Assembly (NCBI GenBank): GCA_018658305.1
Contig: JABHVM010000030.1
Coordinates: 1-55,238 of the forward strand
Source: Thiotrichales bacterium
GTDB taxonomy: Bacteria; Pseudomonadota; Gammaproteobacteria; GCF-002020875
Reading direction: 5' to 3'
Length of the DNA stretch: 55,238 nucleotides
Below are positions 22,786-36,046 of this stretch, one piece after another. The notes beneath the pieces were generated by a model. That model searched no databases. It saw nothing but the letters and a program-made list of their open reading frames with translations, and was not told where the DNA came from. Positions within the stretch are counted from its first letter, which is position 1, and each line of letters opens with the position of its first letter. The position numbers and the translations under genes are program-made.

Positions 22786-24282
22786 ATGTCAAAATCACCC
22801 ACGCCCATCCAATACACTCAAAAATTCTCCCTCCTTAAACAGACTGGAATTCTACTTACCATAATAAGCCTGCTTGCTGTTATAGGTATAGGAAGTTCGA
22901 CGATTATAATAGAGACAACTCAAGGAGCAACTAGTGCGGTAAATATTGCAGGATCACTCCGAATGTACGCCTACAAGATAGCATCACATATGGGGCAGGA
23001 TCAATATAAAAGAGAAATTGTGATTGATAAGTTAGAGGTTCTTATCCACCAATTTGATAACCGTCTCAGCCACCCCAACCTGGTACACATACTTGCAGAG
23101 GGCGAGAACAGTAGAGAGCTCCCACTAAATTTACTCTACTACTCCATAGCTGGACAGTGGGAATCTGAATTTAAACCAATTCTCACCCACTACATAGAGG
23201 AGTTAGGTAACGACGATCTAAACGAAGATCAACTTAAAGATCTCCAGCTTAAACATCAAAAAGAGTATCTCTCACTAGTTGATCACTTTATTTTTAATAT
23301 AACTAATTTGGTAACTTTGATTGAAGAGAATACCGAAACACGGATTCAACTCCTACGCGACATTGAGTATATAGCGCTCCCCCTACTTCTACTTGCCATC
23401 CTTGCTACCCCGCTTCTCCTCTACTTTAGAATATTACTCCCACTGCGCGACCTGTTAGAAATCTCCCAGCTAGTACGCCAGCACGAATTCTCTCGCCAAG
23501 CCCACTATCTACGCAAGGATGAGTTAGGAGAGGTCGGACACGCCTTCAACCTGATGACCACCGACCTCTCGGCAACTTATGCGGAGTTAGAGGATAAAGT
23601 TATAGAGAGAACTAACGACCTCATTCAAGAGGCGAACCGTATCACAATGCTAGAGGAGCGCAGCAACATTGCCCAAGAACTTCATGACTCAATCGCCCAA
23701 TCTGTCTTCTATATGAGAATGCAGATTAGTAGAATTAAGACTCTCTGTAGACGCCAAACCCCACTAGATGAGTTAATTCCAATTATTGAGGAGCTCAGCC
23801 AGAGTAATGACGACAACAATAAACAGCTCCGTGAACTTATATCCACCTTTAGAATAGAGGTGAATCCCGCAGGCCTTACTGTTGCACTTGAAGATATCAT
23901 CAAGAGATATAGCGAGCGCGGAGATACAGATCTTAAATTTGAAAATAGAGTTCCAGAATTTAAATTCAGCCACAATGAAGAGGTCCATCTGATTCAGATA
24001 ACTCAAGAAGCGGTATCAAACATAATCAAACATGCTAACGCTCAACAGGGAGTTATTACCCTAAAACATGATAGAGAGAGCAATAAAATAATTCTAACTA
24101 TCCGTGATGATGGAGTCGGCATCCCAGAGAATCCAGAGCGTCCTAACCACTTTGGTTTAAAGACCATGCAGGAGCGAGGAGAGAGTATGCATGGCAAAAT
24201 AAAGATAGTTGCACTCCCAACCAGAGGAACCAAACTTACCCTCAAATTTCACCCTGCTCTCACTCAAGAAGCAGAGTTATAA
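22786..24282 (+). CDS. NarX/NarQ-type nitrate/nitrite sensor histidine kinase
   Basis: P-box-like AVNIAGSLRM, HAMP (DELG), ERSNIAQELHDSIAQ, EAVSNIIKHA, DDGVG, HFGLKTMQER. Confidence 0.88.
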   Translation: MSKSPTPIQYTQKFSLLKQTGILLTIISLLAVIGIGSSTIIIETTQGATSAVNIAGSLRMYAYKIASHMGQDQYKREIVIDKLEVLIHQFDNRLSHPNLVHILAEGENSRELPLNLLYYSIAGQWESEFKPILTHYIEELGNDDLNEDQLKDLQLKHQKEYLSLVDHFIFNITNLVTLIEENTETRIQLLRDIEYIALPLLLLAILATPLLLYFRILLPLRDLLEISQLVRQHEFSRQAHYLRKDELGEVGHAFNLMTTDLSATYAELEDKVIERTNDLIQEANRITMLEERSNIAQELHDSIAQSVFYMRMQISRIKTLCRRQTPLDELIPIIEELSQSNDDNNKQLRELISTFRIEVNPAGLTVALEDIIKRYSERGDTDLKFENRVPEFKFSHNEEVHLIQITQEAVSNIIKHANAQQGVITLKHDRESNKIILTIRDDGVGIPENPERPNHFGLKTMQERGESMHGKIKIVALPTRGTKLTLKFHPALTQEAEL

Positions 24283-24465
24283 ATAGAGAGCTCTAGCGTA
24301 ACACTATACAAAACCTATCAGTTTAAAAAAACTTGACAAAATTACTTTACTATTGCGGCTAGTTACTCTATAATGGTAATTATTAGCAGACGTTAATACT
24401 GTTGAATTGCACCGTAGAGTACAAGACAGACCAAATTATAACCACCAATTTTGAGAACCAATACT

Positions 24466-25131
24466 ATGACTGAAAACATTACCGCAAATAGCAAATTATC
24501 CCTAATCCTGATTGACGACCATCCTCTAATCCGCAAAGGGATTAGACAGACCGTCGAACTCCACAGCGACATAACCATTATTGGCGAAGCTGATAGCGGA
24601 ACAGAGGGTCTGAAAATCATTAAAGAGAAGCAGCCAGATATGGTGCTTGTAGACCTTAATATGGCAATAATGGATGGAATTAACACCCTAAAGAAAATTA
24701 AAAAGAGCTGGCCTGGGATGAAGGTTGTTATTTTAACCGTCTCTGACAACCCTAAAAATATTGTCAACGCATTCCGTAACAAGGCAGATGGCTACCTCCT
24801 AAAAAATACAGATCCAGAAAGTATCGCTTCACTACTTATAGATGTAATGGCTGGTGAGATGGTAATGAGCCCAGAAGTTGAGAAGATCCACAATAAAGCT
24901 AAAAAAGATAAGCATGGACTCCCCGCACAAAACTTAACTAGACGAGAGGATGAAGTTCTCAGATTGATCGCAGATGGACTCTCTAACCAAGAAGTTGCAG
25001 ATCGCCTTGGTATCTCAGTCTGGACCGCAAAAGTTCATGCCAAACATATTGTATCTAAGATCGGACTTAAATCTCGTAATGAGCTTATTGTTTGGGCTAT
25101 TCGTGAAGGAATTACTAATGATAATAATTAG
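24466..25131 (+). CDS. NarL/NarP-type response regulator
   Basis: IDDHP, DLNM, ILTVSD, ADGYLLK receiver domain; LuxR HTH with TAKVHAKH...LKSR resembling NarL. Confidence 0.88.
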   Translation: MTENITANSKLSLILIDDHPLIRKGIRQTVELHSDITIIGEADSGTEGLKIIKEKQPDMVLVDLNMAIMDGINTLKKIKKSWPGMKVVILTVSDNPKNIVNAFRNKADGYLLKNTDPESIASLLIDVMAGEMVMSPEVEKIHNKAKKDKHGLPAQNLTRREDEVLRLIADGLSNQEVADRLGISVWTAKVHAKHIVSKIGLKSRNELIVWAIREGITNDNN

Positions 25132-25151
25132 TTAGTTAGTTAGTTAGTTAG
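25128..25151. repeat. (TTAG)6 microsatellite
   Basis: Six tandem TTAG units overlapping and following the response-regulator stop codon. Confidence 0.85.
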
Positions 25152-25213
25152 ATACTAAGCTAATTAACTAGCTAGCTAGTAAATTAATTACTAATAACTT
25201 CATCCACAACCAT

Positions 25214-25250
25214 AAAAAAACCCCACCCGATACTATCAGGTGGGGTTTTT
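25214..25250. terminator. Bidirectional intrinsic terminator
   Basis: AAAAAAACCCCACC...GGTGGGGTTTTT between convergent genes. Confidence 0.85.
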
Positions 25251-25310
25251 CTGGTCTTGCGACCTAAGCTTTAAGGCTTATTGTATAAATTAACAATCTA
25301 AGTGTGCAAC

Positions 25311-26747
25311 TTAGTGTTTAATTTTATACTTAGCTTTAAATGCTTTCTGATCAGCTTTACGCTTCGCAGCAACTTTTGGATCCTCTTTTCCAAGGAACCA
25401 CATATGTCCAGGCATATTAAGAACTTCATCAAGCGTTGCTTTTAGGTGATGCGCTGCTTTCTGCTGCTCCGCATTACCATGCTCGCCCTTCTCGATAAGC
25501 TCTCTAAGCTCAGGTACTAACTCAGTGTAGAAGTTCTTACCTAAATCGTAAGTACCTTCCCAATGAGTAATATCTGGACCCATCATAGATGCTGCCATTC
25601 TTGCACGGCGACCTTCATGATGCCATAACTCGAACCATACGAAGTCGATCTTACTAGAGAACTTAGGTAGAGCGATAAGTGGCTTAGCAGCCTTCATCAA
25701 CTTAAGACCTGGTTTACCATACTTACGGTTATACATCTCAACCATACCGTCGTACTGAACATACCAGTTCTCAACCCAACCCTCTTCGTGACATGACTGA
25801 CATACATCTTTCATCTTATCACGACGATCTTCCCAACCAACTGTTCCAGCAATCCAACCCTGCTTCTTAGATACAGGAGGACGGTTAGTCCAGCTTATGC
25901 GATCTCCAACATTATGAGTAACAGACTGCTTGCGAGTAGCACTCATATGACATGTTGAACAAGTAGGAGCTGCGTAGTAATCCTCGCCTGGAATCCACTT
26001 AGAGTTATCCATATTCATCTTATCAATGTTAGCTACATAAGCTATACCATGCTTAGACTCGTCATAGATCTCTTTCTGTGGATGGTCTGGACCCATATGA
26101 CACTTAGTACAGTTTTCTGGATGACGCGCTTGCGCTACAGAGAACTGATGGCGTGAGTGACACGCAGCACAGGTACCTTTAGAACCATCAGGGTTGATTC
26201 GGCCAATACCGGTATTAGGCCAAGTTGCTGGATCTAGAGAACCATCTTCTAGAACTACAACTTTAGAGCCATGACACTGCCAGCAGCCATTTACAGCAGC
26301 AGCAGAAACACCGTCAGGGAATCCTTCAGTAACCATCCCCATATCACCCTCTACAACCTCAGCCAGTAGGTTATCAAGAGAACCCATAATCTTACCTGCT
26401 TCCGCATGGTGAGAAGATGTCATCTCTTGCTCTTCTACTGAGTGACAGTTTGCACAATCAGCTGGAGAAACAATAATTGAAATATGTTTCTTCACCTTTT
26501 TACCATCATGGATAAACGCATCTGCGTCGCCCGCATCAGCTGCATGACACTCATAACAACCAACATTGGCACCGTAGTGCTTACTTGCTCCCCACATCTG
26601 AACTAGACCTGGGTTATTCTTCTTATGGCACGCCACACACTCCTTGGTTTCGTCTGACATCACAGCTGGGGCTTTACTTACTGCAGCCTGCGCTGTTGTC
26701 ATTGCACCAAGAAGGAGTATTGCACCGCTAACTACTCTTAGAAACAT
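25311..26747 (-). CDS. Octaheme cytochrome c, hydroxylamine oxidoreductase family (epsilon-Hao-like)
   Basis: Signal peptide; eight CxxCH motifs (CVACH, CYECH, CANCH, CWQCH, CAACH, CTKCH, CSTCH, CQSCH); WPNTGIGRINPDGS, CHMGPDHPQ, WHHEGRRAR. Confidence 0.9.
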   Translation of the reverse strand: MFLRVVSGAILLLGAMTTAQAAVSKAPAVMSDETKECVACHKKNNPGLVQMWGASKHYGANVGCYECHAADAGDADAFIHDGKKVKKHISIIVSPADCANCHSVEEQEMTSSHHAEAGKIMGSLDNLLAEVVEGDMGMVTEGFPDGVSAAAVNGCWQCHGSKVVVLEDGSLDPATWPNTGIGRINPDGSKGTCAACHSRHQFSVAQARHPENCTKCHMGPDHPQKEIYDESKHGIAYVANIDKMNMDNSKWIPGEDYYAAPTCSTCHMSATRKQSVTHNVGDRISWTNRPPVSKKQGWIAGTVGWEDRRDKMKDVCQSCHEEGWVENWYVQYDGMVEMYNRKYGKPGLKLMKAAKPLIALPKFSSKIDFVWFELWHHEGRRARMAASMMGPDITHWEGTYDLGKNFYTELVPELRELIEKGEHGNAEQQKAAHHLKATLDEVLNMPGHMWFLGKEDPKVAAKRKADQKAFKAKYKIKH

Positions 26748-26861
26748 AATGTTTCCTCCGTTCTTTTAGTTAAATTAAACATAGATATCTATATTACCCA
26801 CTCTGAAGTAGAAACCTCATAAATCTTCGAAGCGAGAGTTCTACCCATTACGGGTGAAGAG

Positions 26862-26958
26862 GATATTACAGAGAGTTAATTTTAATTGCAAGCTTTTTTT
26901 TAAAAAAAACTAACCTTTTTAGGTATTTTTTCAAAAGAATTGATATTACAGAGAGTTA
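26862..26958. repeat. 17-bp direct repeat GATATTACAGAGAGTTA x2 upstream of the HAO-like gene
   Basis: Identical copies at 26862-26878 and 26942-26958. Confidence 0.8.
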
Positions 26959-27002
26959 TAAAAAAGAATACCTAGGGGTTGATCTACTATTTTTAGCTAT
27001 AA

Positions 27003-27851
27003 TTAACTGCAACCTTTATTGAAGCGGCTTCCATAACAGAACACTTGGGGAGCACATACATCTATACACCGACCACAGTTGGTACACTGCTCACTATTGA
27101 TAACTGGAGAGTAACCATCTTTCCCCTTTAGAGCTACCCTTATCACTTGCGGTTCTGGACAAACCACAAAGCAATCCATGCAGTCATTACAAGAGCTGCG
27201 TTGCGCTGCGCGTACTCGGAGCAGACTAAACCTACCTAACAGACTATAGAATGCACCCATAGGACAGACGTGTCCACACCATCCATTTCTACTCCACAGG
27301 AGGTCATATAAAAACACTCCAACCACTACACTCCAACCAAGCCCAACACTATAGAATATACTGCGCTGAAGTAGGGTAACAGGATTCACCAGCTCCCAGA
27401 GCATGGAACCAGTAAAGAGTGAAAGTAGCACAACCATAGCTAGAACCCAATAACGGGTCTGCGGAGAGAGTTCACACTTTTTCTTAAGCCCCAACTTACG
27501 CCGTAACCAGGCTGCTGTATCTGTCACCATATTCATAGGACAGACCCACGAACAGTAGACTCTACCACCTACTATCAAATAGAAGAGCACCACAAGTAGT
27601 GCCCCAATTAGGGCCGTGCTCTCAAATACTTGTCCCGCAGCCAGAGTCTGTAGATATAAAAATGGATCAGTTAGAGGAACTGTTTCTAACAGTACGCTAG
27701 ATGCCAGACTGCCATTTATAATTGTGAGAGGGGCAAATAGAAAGAGCATAATAATTGATATTTGAGAGAGACGACGCAACAGTAGCCACTTATGCGCTCT
27801 AAACCGCCCCTTCTCTTTAACCGCTTCACTTCCTGCCGCTACTCTCTTCAT
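27003..27851 (-). CDS. napH: Quinol dehydrogenase membrane subunit
   Basis: LLRRLSQ, GGRVYCSWVCP, GWCGHVCPMG, CNDCMDCFVVCPEPQV, CTNCGRCIDVC. Confidence 0.95.
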   Translation of the reverse strand: MKRVAAGSEAVKEKGRFRAHKWLLLRRLSQISIIMLFLFAPLTIINGSLASSVLLETVPLTDPFLYLQTLAAGQVFESTALIGALLVVLFYLIVGGRVYCSWVCPMNMVTDTAAWLRRKLGLKKKCELSPQTRYWVLAMVVLLSLFTGSMLWELVNPVTLLQRSIFYSVGLGWSVVVGVFLYDLLWSRNGWCGHVCPMGAFYSLLGRFSLLRVRAAQRSSCNDCMDCFVVCPEPQVIRVALKGKDGYSPVINSEQCTNCGRCIDVCAPQVFCYGSRFNKGCS

Positions 27852-28426
27852 TAGTTATCCTCTTTAACAATTTCTCTATGATGGAGTGACAGCGCATCCA
27901 CTGGGCAGGGCGCTATACATGCACCACATCCATTACATTTATCTGTACTCATCTCCATCTGCACCGCGCCACCAACGCGCGGTCTAAACTTAAACACCTC
28001 TTCCAGACACTGATCTCCACAGACTTGACAGACAACTCCTCTCTGCGCAATACAGGTGTGAGCTAAACGAACCTCCATACTCCACGCAACCCCCTGTTCA
28101 TCATCCTCTGTAGGGAGAAAACGCAGCGCTTGTGGCTTACAGTGATTCACACACTCTCCGCAGAATGTACACTCTCCGCGCTTGAACTCAACCACTGGAA
28201 ACTTAGCGCGCGCCTCCACTAAAATATTAGTCTCACAATATTTTACACATTCACCACAACGGGTGCACTCTTCTGTAAACTGATACTCAGGCAGAGCCCA
28301 TGGTGGTCTTAGTGGACGATTTTTACCTCTAATATCTCCGCGTAAAAATTGCGCACGACTCACCCCTCTCTGTACCTCTGACTGTCTCTCTTCACGCTTG
28401 CGACCACTCTTAAAAAAATCAAACAT
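27851..28426 (-). CDS. napF: Ferredoxin-type protein
   Basis: SRAQFLRG, LRPPWA, four Cys clusters (CTRCGEC, CTFCGEC, CQVCGDQC, CNGCGAC). Start is 28426 or the TTG at 28438. Confidence 0.9.
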   Translation of the reverse strand: MFDFFKSGRKREERQSEVQRGVSRAQFLRGDIRGKNRPLRPPWALPEYQFTEECTRCGECVKYCETNILVEARAKFPVVEFKRGECTFCGECVNHCKPQALRFLPTEDDEQGVAWSMEVRLAHTCIAQRGVVCQVCGDQCLEEVFKFRPRVGGAVQMEMSTDKCNGCGACIAPCPVDALSLHHREIVKEDN

Positions 28427-28465
28427 ATCTATTCTCAATCAACCTTACTCTCTTCATCCCAGTAA

Positions 28466-29068
28466 CTACCCTACCACATCTAGGAAGCGGGAACGGAACC
28501 CTACTCCACACTGCTCTGCCAACGCTTTACATTCGGCTATATTTACTCCATCTAAACCATCAATGGCACTCGCCCTTACTAATGGAATACTCTCTCCTGC
28601 TAGTCGCAAAAAATCCAGCATCGCCGCAAATGATCCCTCTAACTGAGGATGACAATGAATATTATAGACCTCTTCGTTCTGCCCATTCATAGAGACCGAG
28701 AGCTCATCTATCAATCCCACCATCTCTGGAACTACATTGCGCTTATGAAACAGGTTAGCTAATCCATCGGTATTAATTCTAGTTAAACCGCCTCTCTCCT
28801 TAATCCAGCCAGCAACCTCCAGCAACAACTTTAAACGCAGAGTAGGTTCACCATAGCCACAAAATACTATCTGACTATACTCTAGTGGATCGCCGATTGC
28901 AGCAATCACCTCTGCAAAGCTCGGGCGATGATCTGCAGTTAGATTGTATTCATGCACCTGCATACTGCCCTGCGTCTTAGGACAAAATTCACAAACCAGA
29001 GTACAACGATCTGTAATACTCAGGTATAGTCTATCTTCGATAGGGTATGCAATTGTCTGGTTTGGCAC
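28466..29068 (-). CDS. Radical SAM protein (TatD-associated type)
   Basis: LYLSITDRCTLVCEFC (CxxxCxxC), VFCGYGEPT, RINTDG, SVSMN. Confidence 0.82.
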   Translation of the reverse strand: MPNQTIAYPIEDRLYLSITDRCTLVCEFCPKTQGSMQVHEYNLTADHRPSFAEVIAAIGDPLEYSQIVFCGYGEPTLRLKLLLEVAGWIKERGGLTRINTDGLANLFHKRNVVPEMVGLIDELSVSMNGQNEEVYNIHCHPQLEGSFAAMLDFLRLAGESIPLVRASAIDGLDGVNIAECKALAEQCGVGFRSRFLDVVG

Positions 29069-29127
29069 TATACTCTCTCTTCTCTAGAAATATTCACTAA
29101 CATTAAATAACCAATGGCAAAATTAAA

Positions 29128-29688
29128 ATGAGACATCTTAGCACTATACTACCATCACTCCTATCAATTATCTTATCTTCTCTAGCCGTAACTAGCGCAA
29201 CTGCTACCCCCAACTCTTCCCCTACCCTTCTCGATGCGGCTAATCAGGGAGAGGTTCAGTTAACTAAAAAACTTCTAAATAGTATGGCTCCACTCTATCC
29301 GCGCACTAGATCAGGTGAAACCCCTCTCCATCGCGCTGCATATCATGGCTATCCAGAGATTGTTAAGCTCCTTATATCTGCCGAGAGCGTAGTAAATGCT
29401 GTCTCGCGACCAGGTGAGACTCCGCTCCATAAAGCTGCTCAGAAGGGACATATAGATATTATTCAACAACTCCTTACTGCGGGTGCAGAGGTAGATAAAC
29501 AGAACGAATATGGCATCAGCCCACTGCAGCAAGCGATCACAGCAGGACAACTAGAGAGCGTTAAACTACTTTTAGGCTGGGGAGCAGATCCAAAACTTGT
29601 AGATAAACTTGGCATAACCCCTCTGCAGTATGCTACTATGGAGGATGAGTTTGAGATTACAGAACTACTGAAGCAGTATCTCAAGTAA
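29128..29688 (+). CDS. Exported ankyrin-repeat protein
   Basis: Signal peptide plus repeated GETPLH, GISPL and GITPL motifs. Confidence 0.9.
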   Translation: MRHLSTILPSLLSIILSSLAVTSATATPNSSPTLLDAANQGEVQLTKKLLNSMAPLYPRTRSGETPLHRAAYHGYPEIVKLLISAESVVNAVSRPGETPLHKAAQKGHIDIIQQLLTAGAEVDKQNEYGISPLQQAITAGQLESVKLLLGWGADPKLVDKLGITPLQYATMEDEFEITELLKQYLK

Positions 29689-29757: not shown

Positions 29758-30384
29758 ATGAACTTACACGCAATCAACATTCAACTTATAAACAGAAAAC
29801 TATCGGGAGCTTTAGTAGCATCTGCTATGCTACTAGCGAGCGGGCCTCTATCTGCAGCAACTAACACTCAACAGAGTGACAATATGGCAAATATGGGGAT
29901 GAGTGACGCTATTAACTTCTACATCCAAGCTCTACCTATGGAGTTAGACTCCTTGACGCGGGTTCAGTTATTAGATAAGTCTGAAGATATTTTGACCAAC
30001 ATTATAAAAGCTGATCCAAAATCTCTGGAAGCACACCGTAAGCTCCTCGCAGTCTATATGCAGAAGTTAGAGTACAACAAAGGGATCAGCATAGTTAAAA
30101 ATGCAATTAATCTCAGCCCAGAAGATCCTAAGCTCTTTATCACCCTAGCGATCCTCTACCAGAAAATTGGGGCGTTAGAGTACTCTTTAGCTATGGTAGA
30201 GCAGGCTCTAGAACTTGACCCTCAACATATTGTCGCTAAAGATTACAAGGTATTGCTCCAGAAAAAAATTGAGGCAGATAAGGCTGGAGGAACACATAAC
30301 AGCATGTCTAACAGTATGCCTAGTAGCGGTGCACCACACGGTAAGCTCAACCCTGTAGGGGCAGCGGCTCCATCGGCACACTAA
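29758..30384 (+). CDS. Exported TPR-repeat protein
   Basis: Signal peptide, TPR-like helices (AINLSPEDP, ALELDPQH), Met/His-containing tail. Confidence 0.78.
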   Translation: MNLHAINIQLINRKLSGALVASAMLLASGPLSAATNTQQSDNMANMGMSDAINFYIQALPMELDSLTRVQLLDKSEDILTNIIKADPKSLEAHRKLLAVYMQKLEYNKGISIVKNAINLSPEDPKLFITLAILYQKIGALEYSLAMVEQALELDPQHIVAKDYKVLLQKKIEADKAGGTHNSMSNSMPSSGAPHGKLNPVGAAAPSAH

Positions 30385-31692: not shown

Positions 31693-34245
31693 ATGAGTAT
31701 CTCGAGAAGAGAGTTTATTAAAACAAATGCAGCGGCGGCTACCGCAACTGCAATGGGTCTAGGACTTGGCGGCATTCCAGCTGTCACAGTTGCTAAAGAT
31801 GGATATGATTCAGACGGAATCCGTTGGGATAAAGCACCATGTCGTTTCTGTGGTACAGGCTGTAGTATATTGGTCGGTACTCGTGACGGGCGTGTAGTTG
31901 CGACTCAGGGCGACCCAGATGCAGCGGTAAACAAAGGTCTAAACTGTATCAAGGGATATTTTCTATCCAAAATTATGTATGGTAAGGATCGTTTAGACAC
32001 TCCTCTACTGCGTCAAACTGACGGTGAGTTTGATAAGAATGGTGAGTTTACTCCTATCAGCTGGGATGCAGCATTCGACATTATGGCAGAGAAGTGGAAA
32101 GGAGCTATGGCTAATGACCGTGCTCGTGGCGATGGCAAATCTACAGTAGGTATGTTTGGTTCAGGACAGTGGACTGTTATGGAAGGGTACGCTGCATCTA
32201 AACTGATGAAGGCTGGCTTCCGCTCCAATAATATCGACCCTAACGCTCGCCACTGTATGGCATCTGCGGTAGGAGCATTTATGCGCACCTTCGGTTCTGA
32301 CGAGCCAATGGGCTGTTATGATGACTTTGAGCATGGTGAGAACTTTGTGCTTTGGGGTTCCAATATGGCTGAGATGCACCCCATCCTCTGGTCAAGAATT
32401 ACTGATACTCGTCTCACTAAAAAGAACTCTACAGTACAAGTTTTATCTACATTCACTCACCGAAGCTGTGACTTAGCAGATAATGTGATGATTTTTGAAC
32501 CACAGACTGACCTAGTGATTGGTAACTATATTGCCAACTACATTATTCAGAACGGTGCAGTAAATAAATCATTTGTAGAAAATAGTACCAATATCCGCCT
32601 TGCTAACACCGATATCGGTTACGGTCTACGCCCAACTGATCCGCGCGAGAAGAACGCTAAGAACAGCTCTCCTCGTAAAGCACAGGTTGGATCTAAACCA
32701 ATGAGCTTCGATGAGTACAAGGAATTTGTTGCAGACTACACTCTAGAGAAGACCTCTAAAATGTCTGGGGTTCCAGAGAGAAATCTCCTAGAGCTAGCTG
32801 AGATCTACGCCAATCCGAACAAGAAGGTAATGTCTCTATGGACTATGGGTGTAAACCAGCATACTCGTGGAGTCTGGATGAACCACCTAATATATAACAT
32901 CCATCTTCTAACCGGCAAGATCTCTCTCCCTGGTAATGGTCCATTCTCCTTGACTGGACAGCCTTCAGCGTGTGGTACTGCTCGTGAGGTTGGAACTTTT
33001 GCTCATCGTCTCCCTGCAGATTTGGTAGTAATGAAGAAACCACATCGTGACTTTGCTGAGAAGACCTGGAAGATTCCAGAGGGTACTATCCCTGCCAAAC
33101 CTGGCTATCACGCCGTACTGCAGAACCGTATGTTGAAAGATGGCAAGATAAATGCTTACTGGGTAATGTGTAACAACAATGTGCAGGCAGCACCAAACCT
33201 CAATGAAGAGACTATGCCTGGCTATCGCAATCCGAAGAACTTTATTGTAACTTCCGATCCATATCCAACTGTTACTGCAATGGCATCTGACCTAATTCTC
33301 CCTACTGCAATGTGGATTGAGAAAGAGGGAATGTATGGTAATGCGGAGCGCCGTTCACAAGCTTGGCGCCAGCAGGTTCCTTCAGCTAAAGGAACTCGTT
33401 CAGATATCTGGCAGTTAATGGAGTTCTCCAAACGATTTACTACTGAAGAGGCATGGGGTGAAGAGCATGTTGCAAAAATGCCTGAACTGCGTGGCAAAAC
33501 ACTATTTGATGTCCTCTACGCAAATGGTCAAGTCAATAAGTATGGACTTGATGAGCTTCAGCCAGGACATGACAACGAAGAGGCGTTCCATTTTGGCTTC
33601 TATCCACAGAAGGGGCTCTTTGAAGAGTACCGTCTCTTTGGAACTAAAGGACCTAAGAAAGGGCATGAACTTGGTGATTACACCCAGTACCATAAGGTGC
33701 GTGGTATGCGCTGGCCTGTAGTAGATGGCAAAGAGACTCTCTGGCGCTATCGTGATGGCTTTGATCCACATGTACGCAGATCTAACCCAACAGTAGCGAA
33801 GGGAGATGTCTATTTCTATGGTAAGCCAGACGGTAAAGCAAATATCTTCTGCTGCCCTTACGAGCCACCTGCAGAATCACCTAATGATGAGTATCCATTC
33901 TGGATGTCTACTGGACGAGTACTTGAACATTGGCACTCAGGAACAATGACTCAGCGAGTCCCTGAGCTCTACAAGGCGGTTCCTGATGCGTTGATCTATA
34001 TGAATGCAAAAGATGCGAAAGCACAGCGTATGCATGATGGATCTGTGGCTAAGGTATCTTCTAGGCTTGGTGATTTCACTGGTCGTATCTCCACTCGTGG
34101 ACGAAATAAGATGCCAGAAGGGATGATCTTCGTACCATGGTTCGATGCTCGTCGTCTAGTTAACAAGCTAATTCTTGATGCAACCGATCCTCTATCCAAA
34201 GAGACCGATTACAAAAAAGTTGCTGTTAAAATTACTAAAGTCTAA
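31693..34245 (+). CDS. napA: Periplasmic nitrate reductase catalytic subunit
   Basis: Tat signal [48 protein letters not shown]. Confidence 0.98.
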
Positions 34246-34258
34246 GGAGGATTATCCA

Positions 34259-34705
34259 ATGAAAAAGAGTAATAAAATGATGTTTCTGTTGGGCGTGTCT
34301 ATGGTTGCAATGGCTGGTAGCAGCTCTATAGCTACTGCTTTTTATGAGGTAACGTCTCTACGAGGAGATCTAAGTATCAACAGTGATGCGCAGATTCCTG
34401 CCAAGAAGAGAATATATAAAAATGTAGATCTATTTGCGAGAGATTTTAAGGAGCAACCTCCTTTCATGACTCACAAAGAGTATGCTATAAACATTAGGGA
34501 TAATCGCTGTTTTGAGTGTCACAGTGAAGATAACTATCAGGAAGAGGAGACAACTCGTATTCCTGATACCCACTATATGGATCGCAACGACAACAAGCTA
34601 GATCATGTAGCTGGTTCTCGTTACTTCTGTAACCAGTGTCATATGCCGCTATTTAAGGTTGAACCATTAGTTGATAATGACTTCAGATCTTCATCTAGAA
34701 GGTAG
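34259..34705 (+). CDS. napB: Periplasmic nitrate reductase diheme cytochrome c subunit
   Basis: EQPPFMTH, CFECH, RYFCNQCH; AAGGAGG RBS before ATG at 34259. Confidence 0.93.
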   Translation: MKKSNKMMFLLGVSMVAMAGSSSIATAFYEVTSLRGDLSINSDAQIPAKKRIYKNVDLFARDFKEQPPFMTHKEYAINIRDNRCFECHSEDNYQEEETTRIPDTHYMDRNDNKLDHVAGSRYFCNQCHMPLFKVEPLVDNDFRSSSRR

Positions 34706-35197: not shown

Positions 35198-36046
35198 ATG
35201 AAAAAAATAGATCGACGAGAATTTATCACCAATAGCGGTAAGATGGTTGGCGGTATGGCGATTGCTGGAGCTGGTATCGCTCTATTTGGTTCTCAAGCAA
35301 GCTCTAACCCAGCATACGCTCTGCGTCCACCAGGAGCGCTTCCAGAGGAGCAGTTTTTAGGTGCTTGCATAAGATGTGGTCTCTGCGTTAAAGATTGCCC
35401 TTATGATATTCTAAAACTTGGAGAGATCCAAGATGAAGTGGCTCTAGGAACCCCCTACTTTATAGCTAGAGAGATACCTTGCGAGATGTGTGAAGAGATC
35501 TACTGCATTCAAAACTGCCCTACAGGAGCTCTAGATCATAACTTAGCCGACATCAACACATCAAGAATGGGGGTAGCTGTACTGGTTGATCAAGAGACCT
35601 GCCTCAATCTATTGGGGCTGCGTTGTGATATCTGCTACCGTGTATGCCCAGTTATAGACGAGGCTATTACCTTAGAAAGATTTCACAACACTCGCACCCA
35701 AAGCCATACCCTATTTATCCCTACTGTTCACTCTGACAGCTGCACTGGCTGCGGCAAGTGTGAACATGCCTGCCCACTCCCTATCGCCGCAATTAAAGTT
35801 CTTCCAGAGAGTTTAGCTAAAGGTGAATCTAGCTCACACTATCGCCTCGGCTGGAAAGAGAAAGAGAAAAAAGGTAGTGCGTTAGTTGCGCCAGATGTAG
35901 AGCATCAATATAATCTTCCAGATGGATACAAGTATGATCTGCAAGGAGAGGGATTATCTATCCCCGAGACAGATAGTGGGCCAAACTTAATGGATTTTGA
36001 CATTCCTGGATTTGCCAATATCTCTATCTCAAAACCAAAAGAGTAA
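35198..36046 (+). CDS. napG: Ferredoxin-type protein
   Basis: Tat DRREF, ALRPPGAL, CIRCGLC, PCEMC, CDICYRVCP, CTGCGKC, HYRLGW. Confidence 0.95.
   Translation: MKKIDRREFITNSGKMVGGMAIAGAGIALFGSQASSNPAYALRPPGALPEEQFLGACIRCGLCVKDCPYDILKLGEIQDEVALGTPYFIAREIPCEMCEEIYCIQNCPTGALDHNLADINTSRMGVAVLVDQETCLNLLGLRCDICYRVCPVIDEAITLERFHNTRTQSHTLFIPTVHSDSCTGCGKCEHACPLPIAAIKVLPESLAKGESSSHYRLGWKEKEKKGSALVAPDVEHQYNLPDGYKYDLQGEGLSIPETDSGPNLMDFDIPGFANISISKPKE

Follow-up and report, generated by a model that had tools for sequence, protein, structure and literature searches.

An HAO-family octaheme cytochrome encoded beside napFH in a Thiotrichales bacterium is a probable periplasmic nitrite reductase

Introduction

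Which reaction is catalysed by an octaheme c-type cytochrome of the HAO (hydroxylamine oxidoreductase) family whose gene lies between a NarXL-like two-component system and napFH in a sulfur-oxidizing gammaproteobacterium? The question is raised by the gene at 25311..26747 on the minus strand of contig JABHVM010000030.1 from a Thiotrichales bacterium (assembly GCA_018658305.1), the 55,238 nucleotides of which are referred to here as the window. A reading made from the letters alone (the sequence-only reading) had taken the product, P0001, for a candidate nitrite/hydroxylamine reductase apparently without the tyrosine that is cross-linked to heme in oxidative HAOs, and had proposed that it supplies an NrfA-independent step of nitrite ammonification in a gammaproteobacterial sulfur oxidizer.

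The analysis described below shows that P0001 is a periplasmic, reductive-type member of the HAO family and belongs to the clade of the orange octaheme cytochrome of Beggiatoaceae. By two alignment routes, the absence of tyrosine at the cross-link column was confirmed. We consider it probable, if some way short of certain, that P0001 is a periplasmic nitrite reductase, probably active also on nitric oxide (NO) and hydroxylamine. It would draw its electrons from quinol and be induced alongside Nap through the NarXL-like system, and its most likely product would be ammonium. The enzyme clade has already been described, and what the window adds is an example and its context rather than a new concept.

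The octaheme protein and its fold

The features of P0001 on which the argument turns are the following.

25311..26747, minus strand: octaheme c-type cytochrome P0001, HAO family, reductive type (open reading frame (ORF) of 478 residues; PF13447, PDB and Foldseek matches)
26685..26747, minus strand: putative Sec-type signal peptide, residues 1-21 (MFLRVVSGAILLLGAMTTAQA, then AV), read by eye from the translation
26271..26285, minus strand: fourth heme motif CWQCH (155-159), catalytic heme-4 site, by hhalign to the fourth CxxCH of canonical HAO
26082..26087, minus strand: Asp221-His222, distal acid-base pair, by hhalign to the DH located after heme motif six in canonical HAO
25569..25571, minus strand: Ile393, two residues before the cross-link column, aligned by hhalign to a canonical aromatic residue
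25563..25565, minus strand: His395, at the column of the cross-link Tyr, by hhalign and in the same register by MAFFT on 108 rows

The reading frame begins with ATG behind a GGAGG ribosome-binding site. The eight CxxCH motifs counted in the sequence-only reading are all present on the minus strand, namely CVACH (37-41), CYECH (64-68), CANCH (98-102), CWQCH (155-159), CAACH (193-197), CTKCH (213-217), CSTCH (263-267) and CQSCH (316-320), and they contain all 16 cysteines of the protein; the translation has no CxxCK motif. In 20,000 shuffles of the P0001 residues the maximum was two CxxCH motifs, against eight in the real sequence. All eight align by hhalign with the motifs of canonical HAOs in the order of the family. 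The putative signal peptide has the hydrophobic core LLLGAM and a site reading AQA before the next A, again by eye, and the model confidence (pLDDT) is low over residues 16-23.

The Pfam profile PF13447 matches P0001 with 86.2 bits (cut-off 21.9) over profile positions 96-231 only. No NCBIfam equivalog was reached for P0001, the best being hydrazine dehydrogenase with 73 bits against a cut-off of 900. The AlphaFold2 model has a pLDDT of 88.6 and a pTM of 0.84, and its ten best Foldseek matches are all HAO-family chains with E ≤ 8e-10. Both sequence and fold place 4qo5 nearest to P0001 among solved structures, with E values of 3.7e-42 for the single sequence and 5.4e-87 for a 24-sequence profile and a TM score of 0.69. 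With the profile, Nitrosomonas HAO (NeHAO; 3.7e-48) and the anammox protein KsHAOr (6h5l; 5.1e-42) are lesser matches, together with KsHOX and HDH; the corresponding TM scores are ~0.50 for NeHAO and 0.55 for 6h5l.

According to PMC9250108, which cites Parey et al. (2016), 4QO5 is an octaheme nitrite reductase from Ignicoccus hospitalis (IhOCC) and lacks a P460 heme. IhOCC carries Trp two residues before the cross-link column and has a D-x-T-x motif in common with P0001; it differs in being archaeal, in its length of 521 residues, in an identity of ~25% in the Foldseek alignment, and in having additional residues, in the alignment, between the regions of heme 7 and heme 8. KsHAOr (Kustc0458/0457; Ferousi et al. 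2021) also has the HAO fold without the Tyr, and its C-terminal D-V-S-W-W-W-G can be aligned with D-I-T-H-W-E-G of P0001, but it is much more distant than IhOCC (E 7.7e-19). NeHAO (1fgj, 4fas) and P0001 have in common the fold, the order of the eight hemes and the distal Asp-His pair, at an identity of 17-19% in the Foldseek alignments, whereas the cross-link Tyr (in WTYTEG) is found only in NeHAO.

Chains of the TvNiR type (Thioalkalivibrio ONR) match P0001 with fold E values ≥ 5.9e-3 and with a sequence E of 2e-4 over ~80 residues, and no Otr entry is among the PDB sequence matches or Foldseek matches listed for P0001. The genome search with TIGR04315 (Otr) gave no match, a weak negative in that its control was silent too. 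Otr and ONR are not relatives of P0001.

Register of the C-terminal segment and the active site

The C-terminal segment singled out in the sequence-only reading, RARMAASMMGPDITHWEG, corresponds to residues 381-398 (25554-25607) and indeed contains no Tyr. Sequence and profile searches of the PDB with P0001 end at NeHAO residue 409, and a profile of the C-terminal part only (A2) stops short of residue 467; canonical HAOs for comparison came from a 400-genome sample of the same class. In this sample PF13447 matches 39 genomes at E ≤ 1e-10, and five have a match to the whole model at E ≤ 2e-147. The four canonical HAO loci that were examined each have an ORF of 329-348 residues downstream, as expected of haoB. 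One of these HAOs (L089) matches the NeHAO chains 4fas and 1fgj with E 1e-171, and chain index 467 is the Y of WTYTEG, that is, Tyr467, which we take to be the cross-linking residue.

Alignment of the family alignment (A1) with four canonical HAOs (A3) by hhalign gave a probability of 100% and E 1.4e-43 over 349 columns, and paired MMGPD-ITHWEG of P0001 with the canonical HANPGGFTYTEG. His395 thereby falls at the register of NeHAO 467, and MAFFT on the 108 rows used for the tree, from which 3 of 81 family sequences, all shorter than 400 residues, had been excluded, gave the same result. At this column Tyr is found in 5/5 canonical HAOs and in 0/90 rows of the octaheme family, which have H, Q or W instead. 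The claim that P0001 has no cross-linking Tyr is thus confirmed at the level of alignment. In PMC12758564 the key site is given as His in reductive and Tyr in oxidative HAOs.

The residue two positions before the cross-link column varies within an otherwise near-invariant PD-x-THW motif: in 81 sequences it is Y in 45, I in 33 and W in 3, and the tree requires a minimum of five changes. Among the carriers of Ile, as in P0001, are tubeworm symbionts, SUP05 and Hydrogenedentota; among those of Tyr, Thiotrichaceae, Cocleimonas and Planctomycetota; and among those of Trp, anammox bacteria and the orange protein. The Tyr of PDY in relatives was considered as the cross-link residue, which would have given a family with both oxidative and reductive members, and rejected, because canonical HAOs also carry F, Y or W at this earlier position, and both hhalign and MAFFT put the true Tyr two residues later. 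For the variants with Tyr at position 393 a different gap placement may be conceivable in the alignment; it has no effect on P0001.

The distal Asp-His pair of HAOs has a catalytic role, and Asp221-His222 of P0001 corresponds to D267-H268 of NeHAO (chain index). The fourth heme, bound in P0001 by CWQCH, is the catalytic (P460) heme of HAOs as described in PMC12758564. No haoB-like gene lies directly 3' of the octaheme gene, where the next gene is the convergent narL, in contrast to the canonical oxidative loci with their haoB-like gene downstream.

Relatives of P0001 and the orange cytochrome

The octaheme family is large, with 7965 of 8000 scored candidates matching at E ≤ 1e-3, the best 120 of these all at least 63% identical to P0001. 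Matches were also obtained for 1695 representatives of 50%-identity clusters, and at least 396 species-level genomes have a relative of P0001. The closest named relatives (76-83% identity) are those of Escarpia and Lamellibrachia tubeworm endosymbionts, Sedimenticolaceae and uncultured Gammaproteobacteria, followed by SUP05/Thioglobus at 61-66% and by Planctomycetota, Scalindua/Brocadiaceae (58-61%), Hydrogenedentota and Myxococcota at 56-64%.

In a FastTree phylogeny of 108 rows rooted on canonical HAO, with supports that are local only, the 90 rows of the octaheme family sit on a long stem (support 100) that separates them from the canonical HAOs, a further gammaproteobacterial group (group B) and the HAOr-like row L105. 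A gammaproteobacterial subclade of 47 rows (support 99) holds both P0001 and the ORF of the orange protein. The group B paralogue, of 584-612 residues with a C-terminal AAHGDxxGV motif, accompanies an orthologue of P0001 as a second HAO-family gene in two genomes of the same genus (G229:C11, L095; G379:C11, L096). It is absent from the genome of the window, in which the octaheme gene is the only match to PF13447.

The orange octaheme cytochrome of Beggiatoaceae, BOGUAY_0691, is a characterized enzyme of which P0001 is taken to be an orthologue. Both published BOGUAY_0691 primers exactly bracket a 511-residue ORF in a metagenome contig (L126), to which P0001 is 59% identical over 499 residues, in full length and with E 0. 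The identification of this ORF as BOGUAY_0691 rests on the two primers and the length rather than on a named record, and is to be taken as putative. Like P0001, the orange cytochrome has eight CxxCH motifs and a host that oxidises sulfur and reduces nitrate; it is longer (511 against 478 residues), has Gln at the cross-link column and Trp two residues before it, where P0001 has His and Ile, and its ORF in L126 is flanked by a hydrolase and a Proton_antipo_M protein, whereas the P0001 gene lies by napFH. Buckley et al. (2019, PMC6449678) describe the orange cytochrome as a protein of 511 residues with napA and napB upstream and a sister lineage in SUP05, and list nitrite reductase, hydroxylamine oxidase and hydrazine oxidase activities; reduction of nitrite to ammonia in vitro is stated in PMC6052272, citing MacGregor 2013b. 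The SUP05 homologues having thus been placed beside the orange cytochrome already, the idea is not new for gammaproteobacterial sulfur oxidizers.

Genes around the octaheme gene

The neighbouring genes and intergenic features are the following.

22786..24282, plus strand: NarX/NarQ-like nitrate/nitrite sensor kinase (PilJ, HAMP, HisKA_3 and HATPase domains; NarQ/NarX models 256-268 bits, below their cut-offs)
24451..25131, plus strand: NarL-like response regulator (NF007935 210.9 bits, just below the cut-off of 250; REC and GerE domains)
25216..25250, no strand assigned: 17-nt inverted repeat, 94% complementary, flanked by A/T runs, between the convergent narL and octaheme genes
26748..27002, minus strand: napH-octaheme intergenic region with two exact 17-nt direct repeats, 26862-26878 and 26942-26958, 80 bp apart
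27003..27851, minus strand: napH, membrane quinol dehydrogenase subunit (NF007013 394.8 bits, cut-off 234)
27851..28438, minus strand: napF, cytoplasmic ferredoxin-type protein (TIGR00402 112.5 bits, cut-off 102.2)
28466-29068, minus strand: TatD-associated radical-SAM gene
29128-29688, plus strand: ankyrin-repeat protein, between the radical-SAM and TPR genes
29758..30384, plus strand: periplasmic tetratricopeptide repeat (TPR) protein P0271, with homologues near the octaheme gene in relatives
31693..34245, plus strand: napA, periplasmic nitrate reductase catalytic subunit (NF010055 1443 bits)
34175..34705, plus strand: napB, diheme subunit (Pfam NapB 111.8 bits)
35198..36046, plus strand: napG, periplasmic Fe-S partner of NapH (NF007012 357.7 bits, cut-off 269)

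These family matches bear out the placement of the octaheme gene between NarXL and napFH. The order on the minus strand is radical-SAM gene, napF, napH, a spacer of 255 bp and the octaheme gene, on the 3' end of which the narX-like and narL-like genes converge; on the plus strand it is ankyrin protein, TPR protein, moaA, napA, napB and napG. The locus of one relative (L011) repeats this gene order, napF-napH again preceding the octaheme gene on its strand. In the window the nap genes are divided, napF-napH lying with the octaheme gene on the minus strand and napA-napB-napG on the plus strand, so that NapG and NapH, which belong to one quinol dehydrogenase, are in different transcription units. 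The window contains no napC. Ankyrin-repeat genes are found at both nitrate-related cytochrome loci of the genome, at 29128-29688 and, on contig C52, directly after a NapC/NirT-type gene (L117:2147-3157).

In the survey of related loci, 62 of 80 had more than 1.5 kb on a given side. napA occurs in the flank of the octaheme gene in 15 of the 80; its arrangement varies, and several phyla are represented. Genes that precede the octaheme gene of relatives in the same orientation encode a membrane protein of the NrfD type (18 loci), a 4Fe-4S protein (16) and a multiheme cytochrome (15), and examples of this three-part module are L012-L018, L025, L027 and L073, among others. A fusion of cytochrome c and cytochrome b561 (656 residues) is encoded downstream of the octaheme gene in 10 loci (e.g. 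L033-L038, L041, L043, L045). The presence of varied quinol-dehydrogenase modules beside one catalytic subunit fits a quinol-fed periplasmic reductase. E. coli NrfABCD is an analogue for these operons, in that the catalytic cytochrome of 15-18 related loci comes after a multiheme cytochrome, an Fe-S protein and a membrane protein of the NrfD type; it differs in that NrfA is a pentaheme protein and not an HAO-type octaheme protein with CxxCH motifs, and at the window locus napFH takes the position of the module.

The commonest neighbour of the octaheme gene is a homologue of the TPR protein, which occurs at 37 of 81 loci and at 25 of these is encoded next downstream in the same orientation (median gap 132 bp). 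It has ~190 residues and a signal-like N-terminus (examples are L023:1773-2309, L030:5806-6393 and L052:2017-2562), and its relatives are only weakly similar to NrfG and CcmH, in the TPR parts of these proteins. When the 400-genome class sample was searched for it, the best 12 matches among short ORFs were all in PF13447-positive genomes, 10 of them on the same contig and within 4 kb. The TPR protein may be a dedicated maturation or docking factor for the octaheme protein.

The 17-nt repeat of the napH-octaheme spacer has 4 matches with ≤ 3 mismatches where 0.29 are expected, and may be either a regulator site or a small duplication. A third copy of a longer version, 83% alike, lies inside napH at 27747-27770, and the 14-nt core has no exact match in 124 other loci. 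The inverted repeat at 25216..25250 is likely a two-way terminator; the consensus terminator scan did not pick it up. That scan performed at chance (2 sites, 2.3 expected), as did the promoter consensus scan (10 sites, 7.9 +/- 2.6 expected).

Stretch 25100-29100 is found in at least 20 marine or seawater metatranscriptome runs, and 17 of the 20 listed, from 17 studies, hold at least half of the sampled words. Contigs from four RNA runs (three studies) cover the stretch, and in 3 of the 4 a contig bridges the spacer between napH and the octaheme gene. Contig depth in these four runs is 4e3-2e4 over the octaheme gene and 49-880 over napFH, which is a hint of high octaheme expression, although contig depths cannot rank genes. 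Position 26844 was not accepted as a transcription start, the candidate being the end of a single contig of one run that finishes in adapter-like letters.

Searches of the whole genome

The genome assembly amounts to 1.65 Mb, spread over 96 contigs, with a rated completeness of 95%; the window is on contig C27. Genome-wide searches gave no match for NrfA, none above the cut-off for NirK, and none for Hcp. No NorB was seen, the two COX1 matches being aa3 and cbb3 oxidases, and no NosZ-type match turned up, although no search was aimed at NosZ. The genome search for ammonia monooxygenase (AMO; PF02461) gave no match either, a weak negative in view of a control that was silent in every control genome. 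On contig C27 itself these whole-genome family searches gave no match to nir, nrf or amo, in agreement with what the sequence-only reading had said of the window, with the same weakness for AMO. A gene for a NapC/NirT-type tetraheme cytochrome is on contig C52, away from the octaheme gene.

Two dsrA-like genes are present in this small genome. One, at L005:841-2301 on C90, encodes 486 residues (TIGR02064, 460 bits); on C53 (L006/L007), two NIR_SIR-domain ORFs of 460 and 365 residues are read as dsrAB without annotation.

Discussion

The proposal that P0001 is a nitrite/hydroxylamine reductase is favoured by its reductive type, the absent Tyr, the intact Asp-His pair, the predicted export, the nap linkage and the 59% identity to the orange protein. 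Without a Tyr-heme cross-link the active heme would be an ordinary five-coordinate heme c, which would favour reduction. The substrate would be nitrite released in the periplasm by NapAB, probably with NO and hydroxylamine as further substrates, and the end product would most likely be ammonium. Judging by gene order, electrons would pass from the quinol pool through NapH/NapG to the octaheme protein; the NapC/NirT-type cytochrome encoded elsewhere in the genome could be an alternative donor. Expression would be under the adjacent nitrate/nitrite two-component system.

Such a scheme has precedents. Nitrite reduction by HAOs without the Tyr is documented for epsilon-HAOs and KsHAOr in PMC8042395. 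For the epsilon-Hao proteins (reverse HURM) of Campylobacterota, reduction of nitrite and hydroxylamine downstream of Nap in hosts without NrfA has been proposed or shown (Campbell et al. 2009, PMC2628731; Haase et al. 2017, cited in PMC8042395). They resemble P0001 in having no Tyr, and the present genome likewise gave no NrfA match. Their proposed donor is a tetraheme cytochrome of the NapC/NrfH/cM552 type and their pathway needs Hcp, whereas in the present genome napF-napH is adjacent, the NapC-type gene is on another contig and Hcp was not found.

Several points weigh against this account. We infer substrate and product, and whether the latter is ammonium or NO cannot be read from the sequence; KsHAOr, equally without the Tyr, yields NO and not ammonium according to PMC8042395. 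The transfer of electrons from NapH to the octaheme protein is one that we infer from gene order alone. In the data given in PMC6449678, recombinant orange protein was a weak nitrite reductase (0.003-0.014 µmol/min/mg, against 0.05-0.31 for the native protein), and nitrite as the only acceptor did not support growth of a cultured SUP05 strain that has a homologue. By the title of MacGregor 2013b, as cited, hydroxylamine and hydrazine were also oxidised by the native orange protein. Within the clade of the orange cytochrome and IhOCC, nitrite reductase activity is known only from IhOCC and from the orange protein in its native and recombinant forms. Contigs from RNA libraries are not proof of transcription, and DNA may conceivably be present in such libraries. 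Finally, the genome has other means of dealing with nitrite. The NirB large subunit is encoded on C29 (L119), cut by the contig end, with 712 bits against a cut-off of 578 for TIGR02374; PF01077 missed it because the siroheme domain is lost at the contig end. On C68 (L002), a cd1 cluster encodes a NirS-like N-terminus, which the contig end likewise truncates, together with a small cytochrome c and a NirF-like protein; narI is near by. Nitrite can therefore be handled by NirB and cd1 NirS/NirF without the octaheme protein.

With NirB and cd1 NirS present, the octaheme protein is not the sole route from nitrite and is not needed to explain ammonium formation. The suggestion of an NrfA-independent ammonification is sustained as far as the missing NrfA match goes, but to see in the octaheme protein an otherwise missing step goes too far, given that the genome has a cytoplasmic route; a check of the genome for nrfA, nirS and nirK, which the sequence-only reading had recommended, came out with no NrfA and no NirK above the cut-off and with a cd1 NirS cluster present. 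With neither NorB nor Hcp seen, the octaheme protein would be the only obvious sink for NO from NirS (contigs C68, L002; C29, L119; C53/C90, L128 and L129).

P0001 might alternatively be mainly detoxifying, removing NO or hydroxylamine that arises in nitrate/nitrite turnover, and not a respiratory or assimilatory nitrite reductase. The failure of the SUP05 isolate to respire nitrite (PMC6449678), the lack of Hcp and NorB matches, and the reduction of NO and NH2OH by HAOs without the Tyr (PMC8042395) all speak for this role. The quinol-dehydrogenase modules beside the gene in many lineages and the tight nap linkage better fit an energy-linked terminal reductase, and we regard a mainly detoxifying function as unlikely; the two roles are not exclusive.

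It is improbable that P0001 forms NO by one-electron reduction of nitrite in the manner of KsHAOr, duplicating or replacing NirS. KsHAOr, which works with a diheme cytochrome partner, turns nitrite into NO without the Tyr (PMC8042395); in PMC11266412, Phycisphaerae homologues are interpreted as Onr that forms NO or ammonium in cases where nirK and nirS are lacking, and Scalindua and Brocadiaceae have relatives of P0001. Against this, a cd1 NirS cluster is already in the genome, extra NO would be a burden given that no NorB was found, 6h5l is a far weaker match than IhOCC, and the HAOr-like row lies outside the octaheme family on the tree.

A function on another substrate (sulfite, tetrathionate or metals), or as a pure electron relay from NapGH to NapAB, seems to us quite improbable. 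The host oxidises sulfur and has apr, sat and dsr genes nearby, multiheme enzymes are promiscuous, and the window has no napC, yet Otr and ONR are unrelated to P0001 (TvNiR-type matches being weak only and no Otr being among those listed), the catalytic Asp-His pair is kept, and the linkage seen across phyla is to nap, not to sulfur genes. Oxidation of hydroxylamine or hydrazine with delivery of electrons into the chain, suggested by relatives that sources name hydroxylamine oxidoreductase or hydroxylamine dehydrogenase and by the in vitro activities of native orange protein in the title of MacGregor 2013b as cited, is highly improbable in view of the missing Tyr, the missing haoB-like gene (present at 4/4 canonical loci), the lack of an AMO match, though its control was silent, and the report in PMC8042395 that oxidation of these substrates is 100-1000 times slower with KsHAOr than with oxidative HAOs.

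For the preferred assignment, a quinol-fed periplasmic nitrite reductase, the general idea is in print for Beggiatoaceae and SUP05, and the context added here consists of linkage to napFH, a TPR protein as neighbour and His in place of the Tyr. A bolder extension, which we find rather unlikely as a whole, is that the Nap-linked octaheme protein without the Tyr and its conserved periplasmic TPR partner would constitute an overlooked quinol-driven dissimilatory nitrate reduction to ammonium (DNRA) in abundant marine sulfur oxidizers, both planktonic and symbiotic, such as the present lineage, SUP05 and the symbionts of tubeworms. For want of nrfA such organisms are commonly counted as denitrifiers or "nitrite producers"; in this extension the recurrent Tyr/Ile/Trp switch two residues before the cross-link column would tune product or direction.

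Surveys of DNRA that score nrfA alone would miss the octaheme family with its at least 396 species-level genomes. Its hosts include plankton of oxygen-minimum zones and animal symbionts, and the locus is found in many marine metatranscriptomes. Should the product be ammonium, nitrogen would be retained by these bacteria; should it be NO, they would add to its loss.

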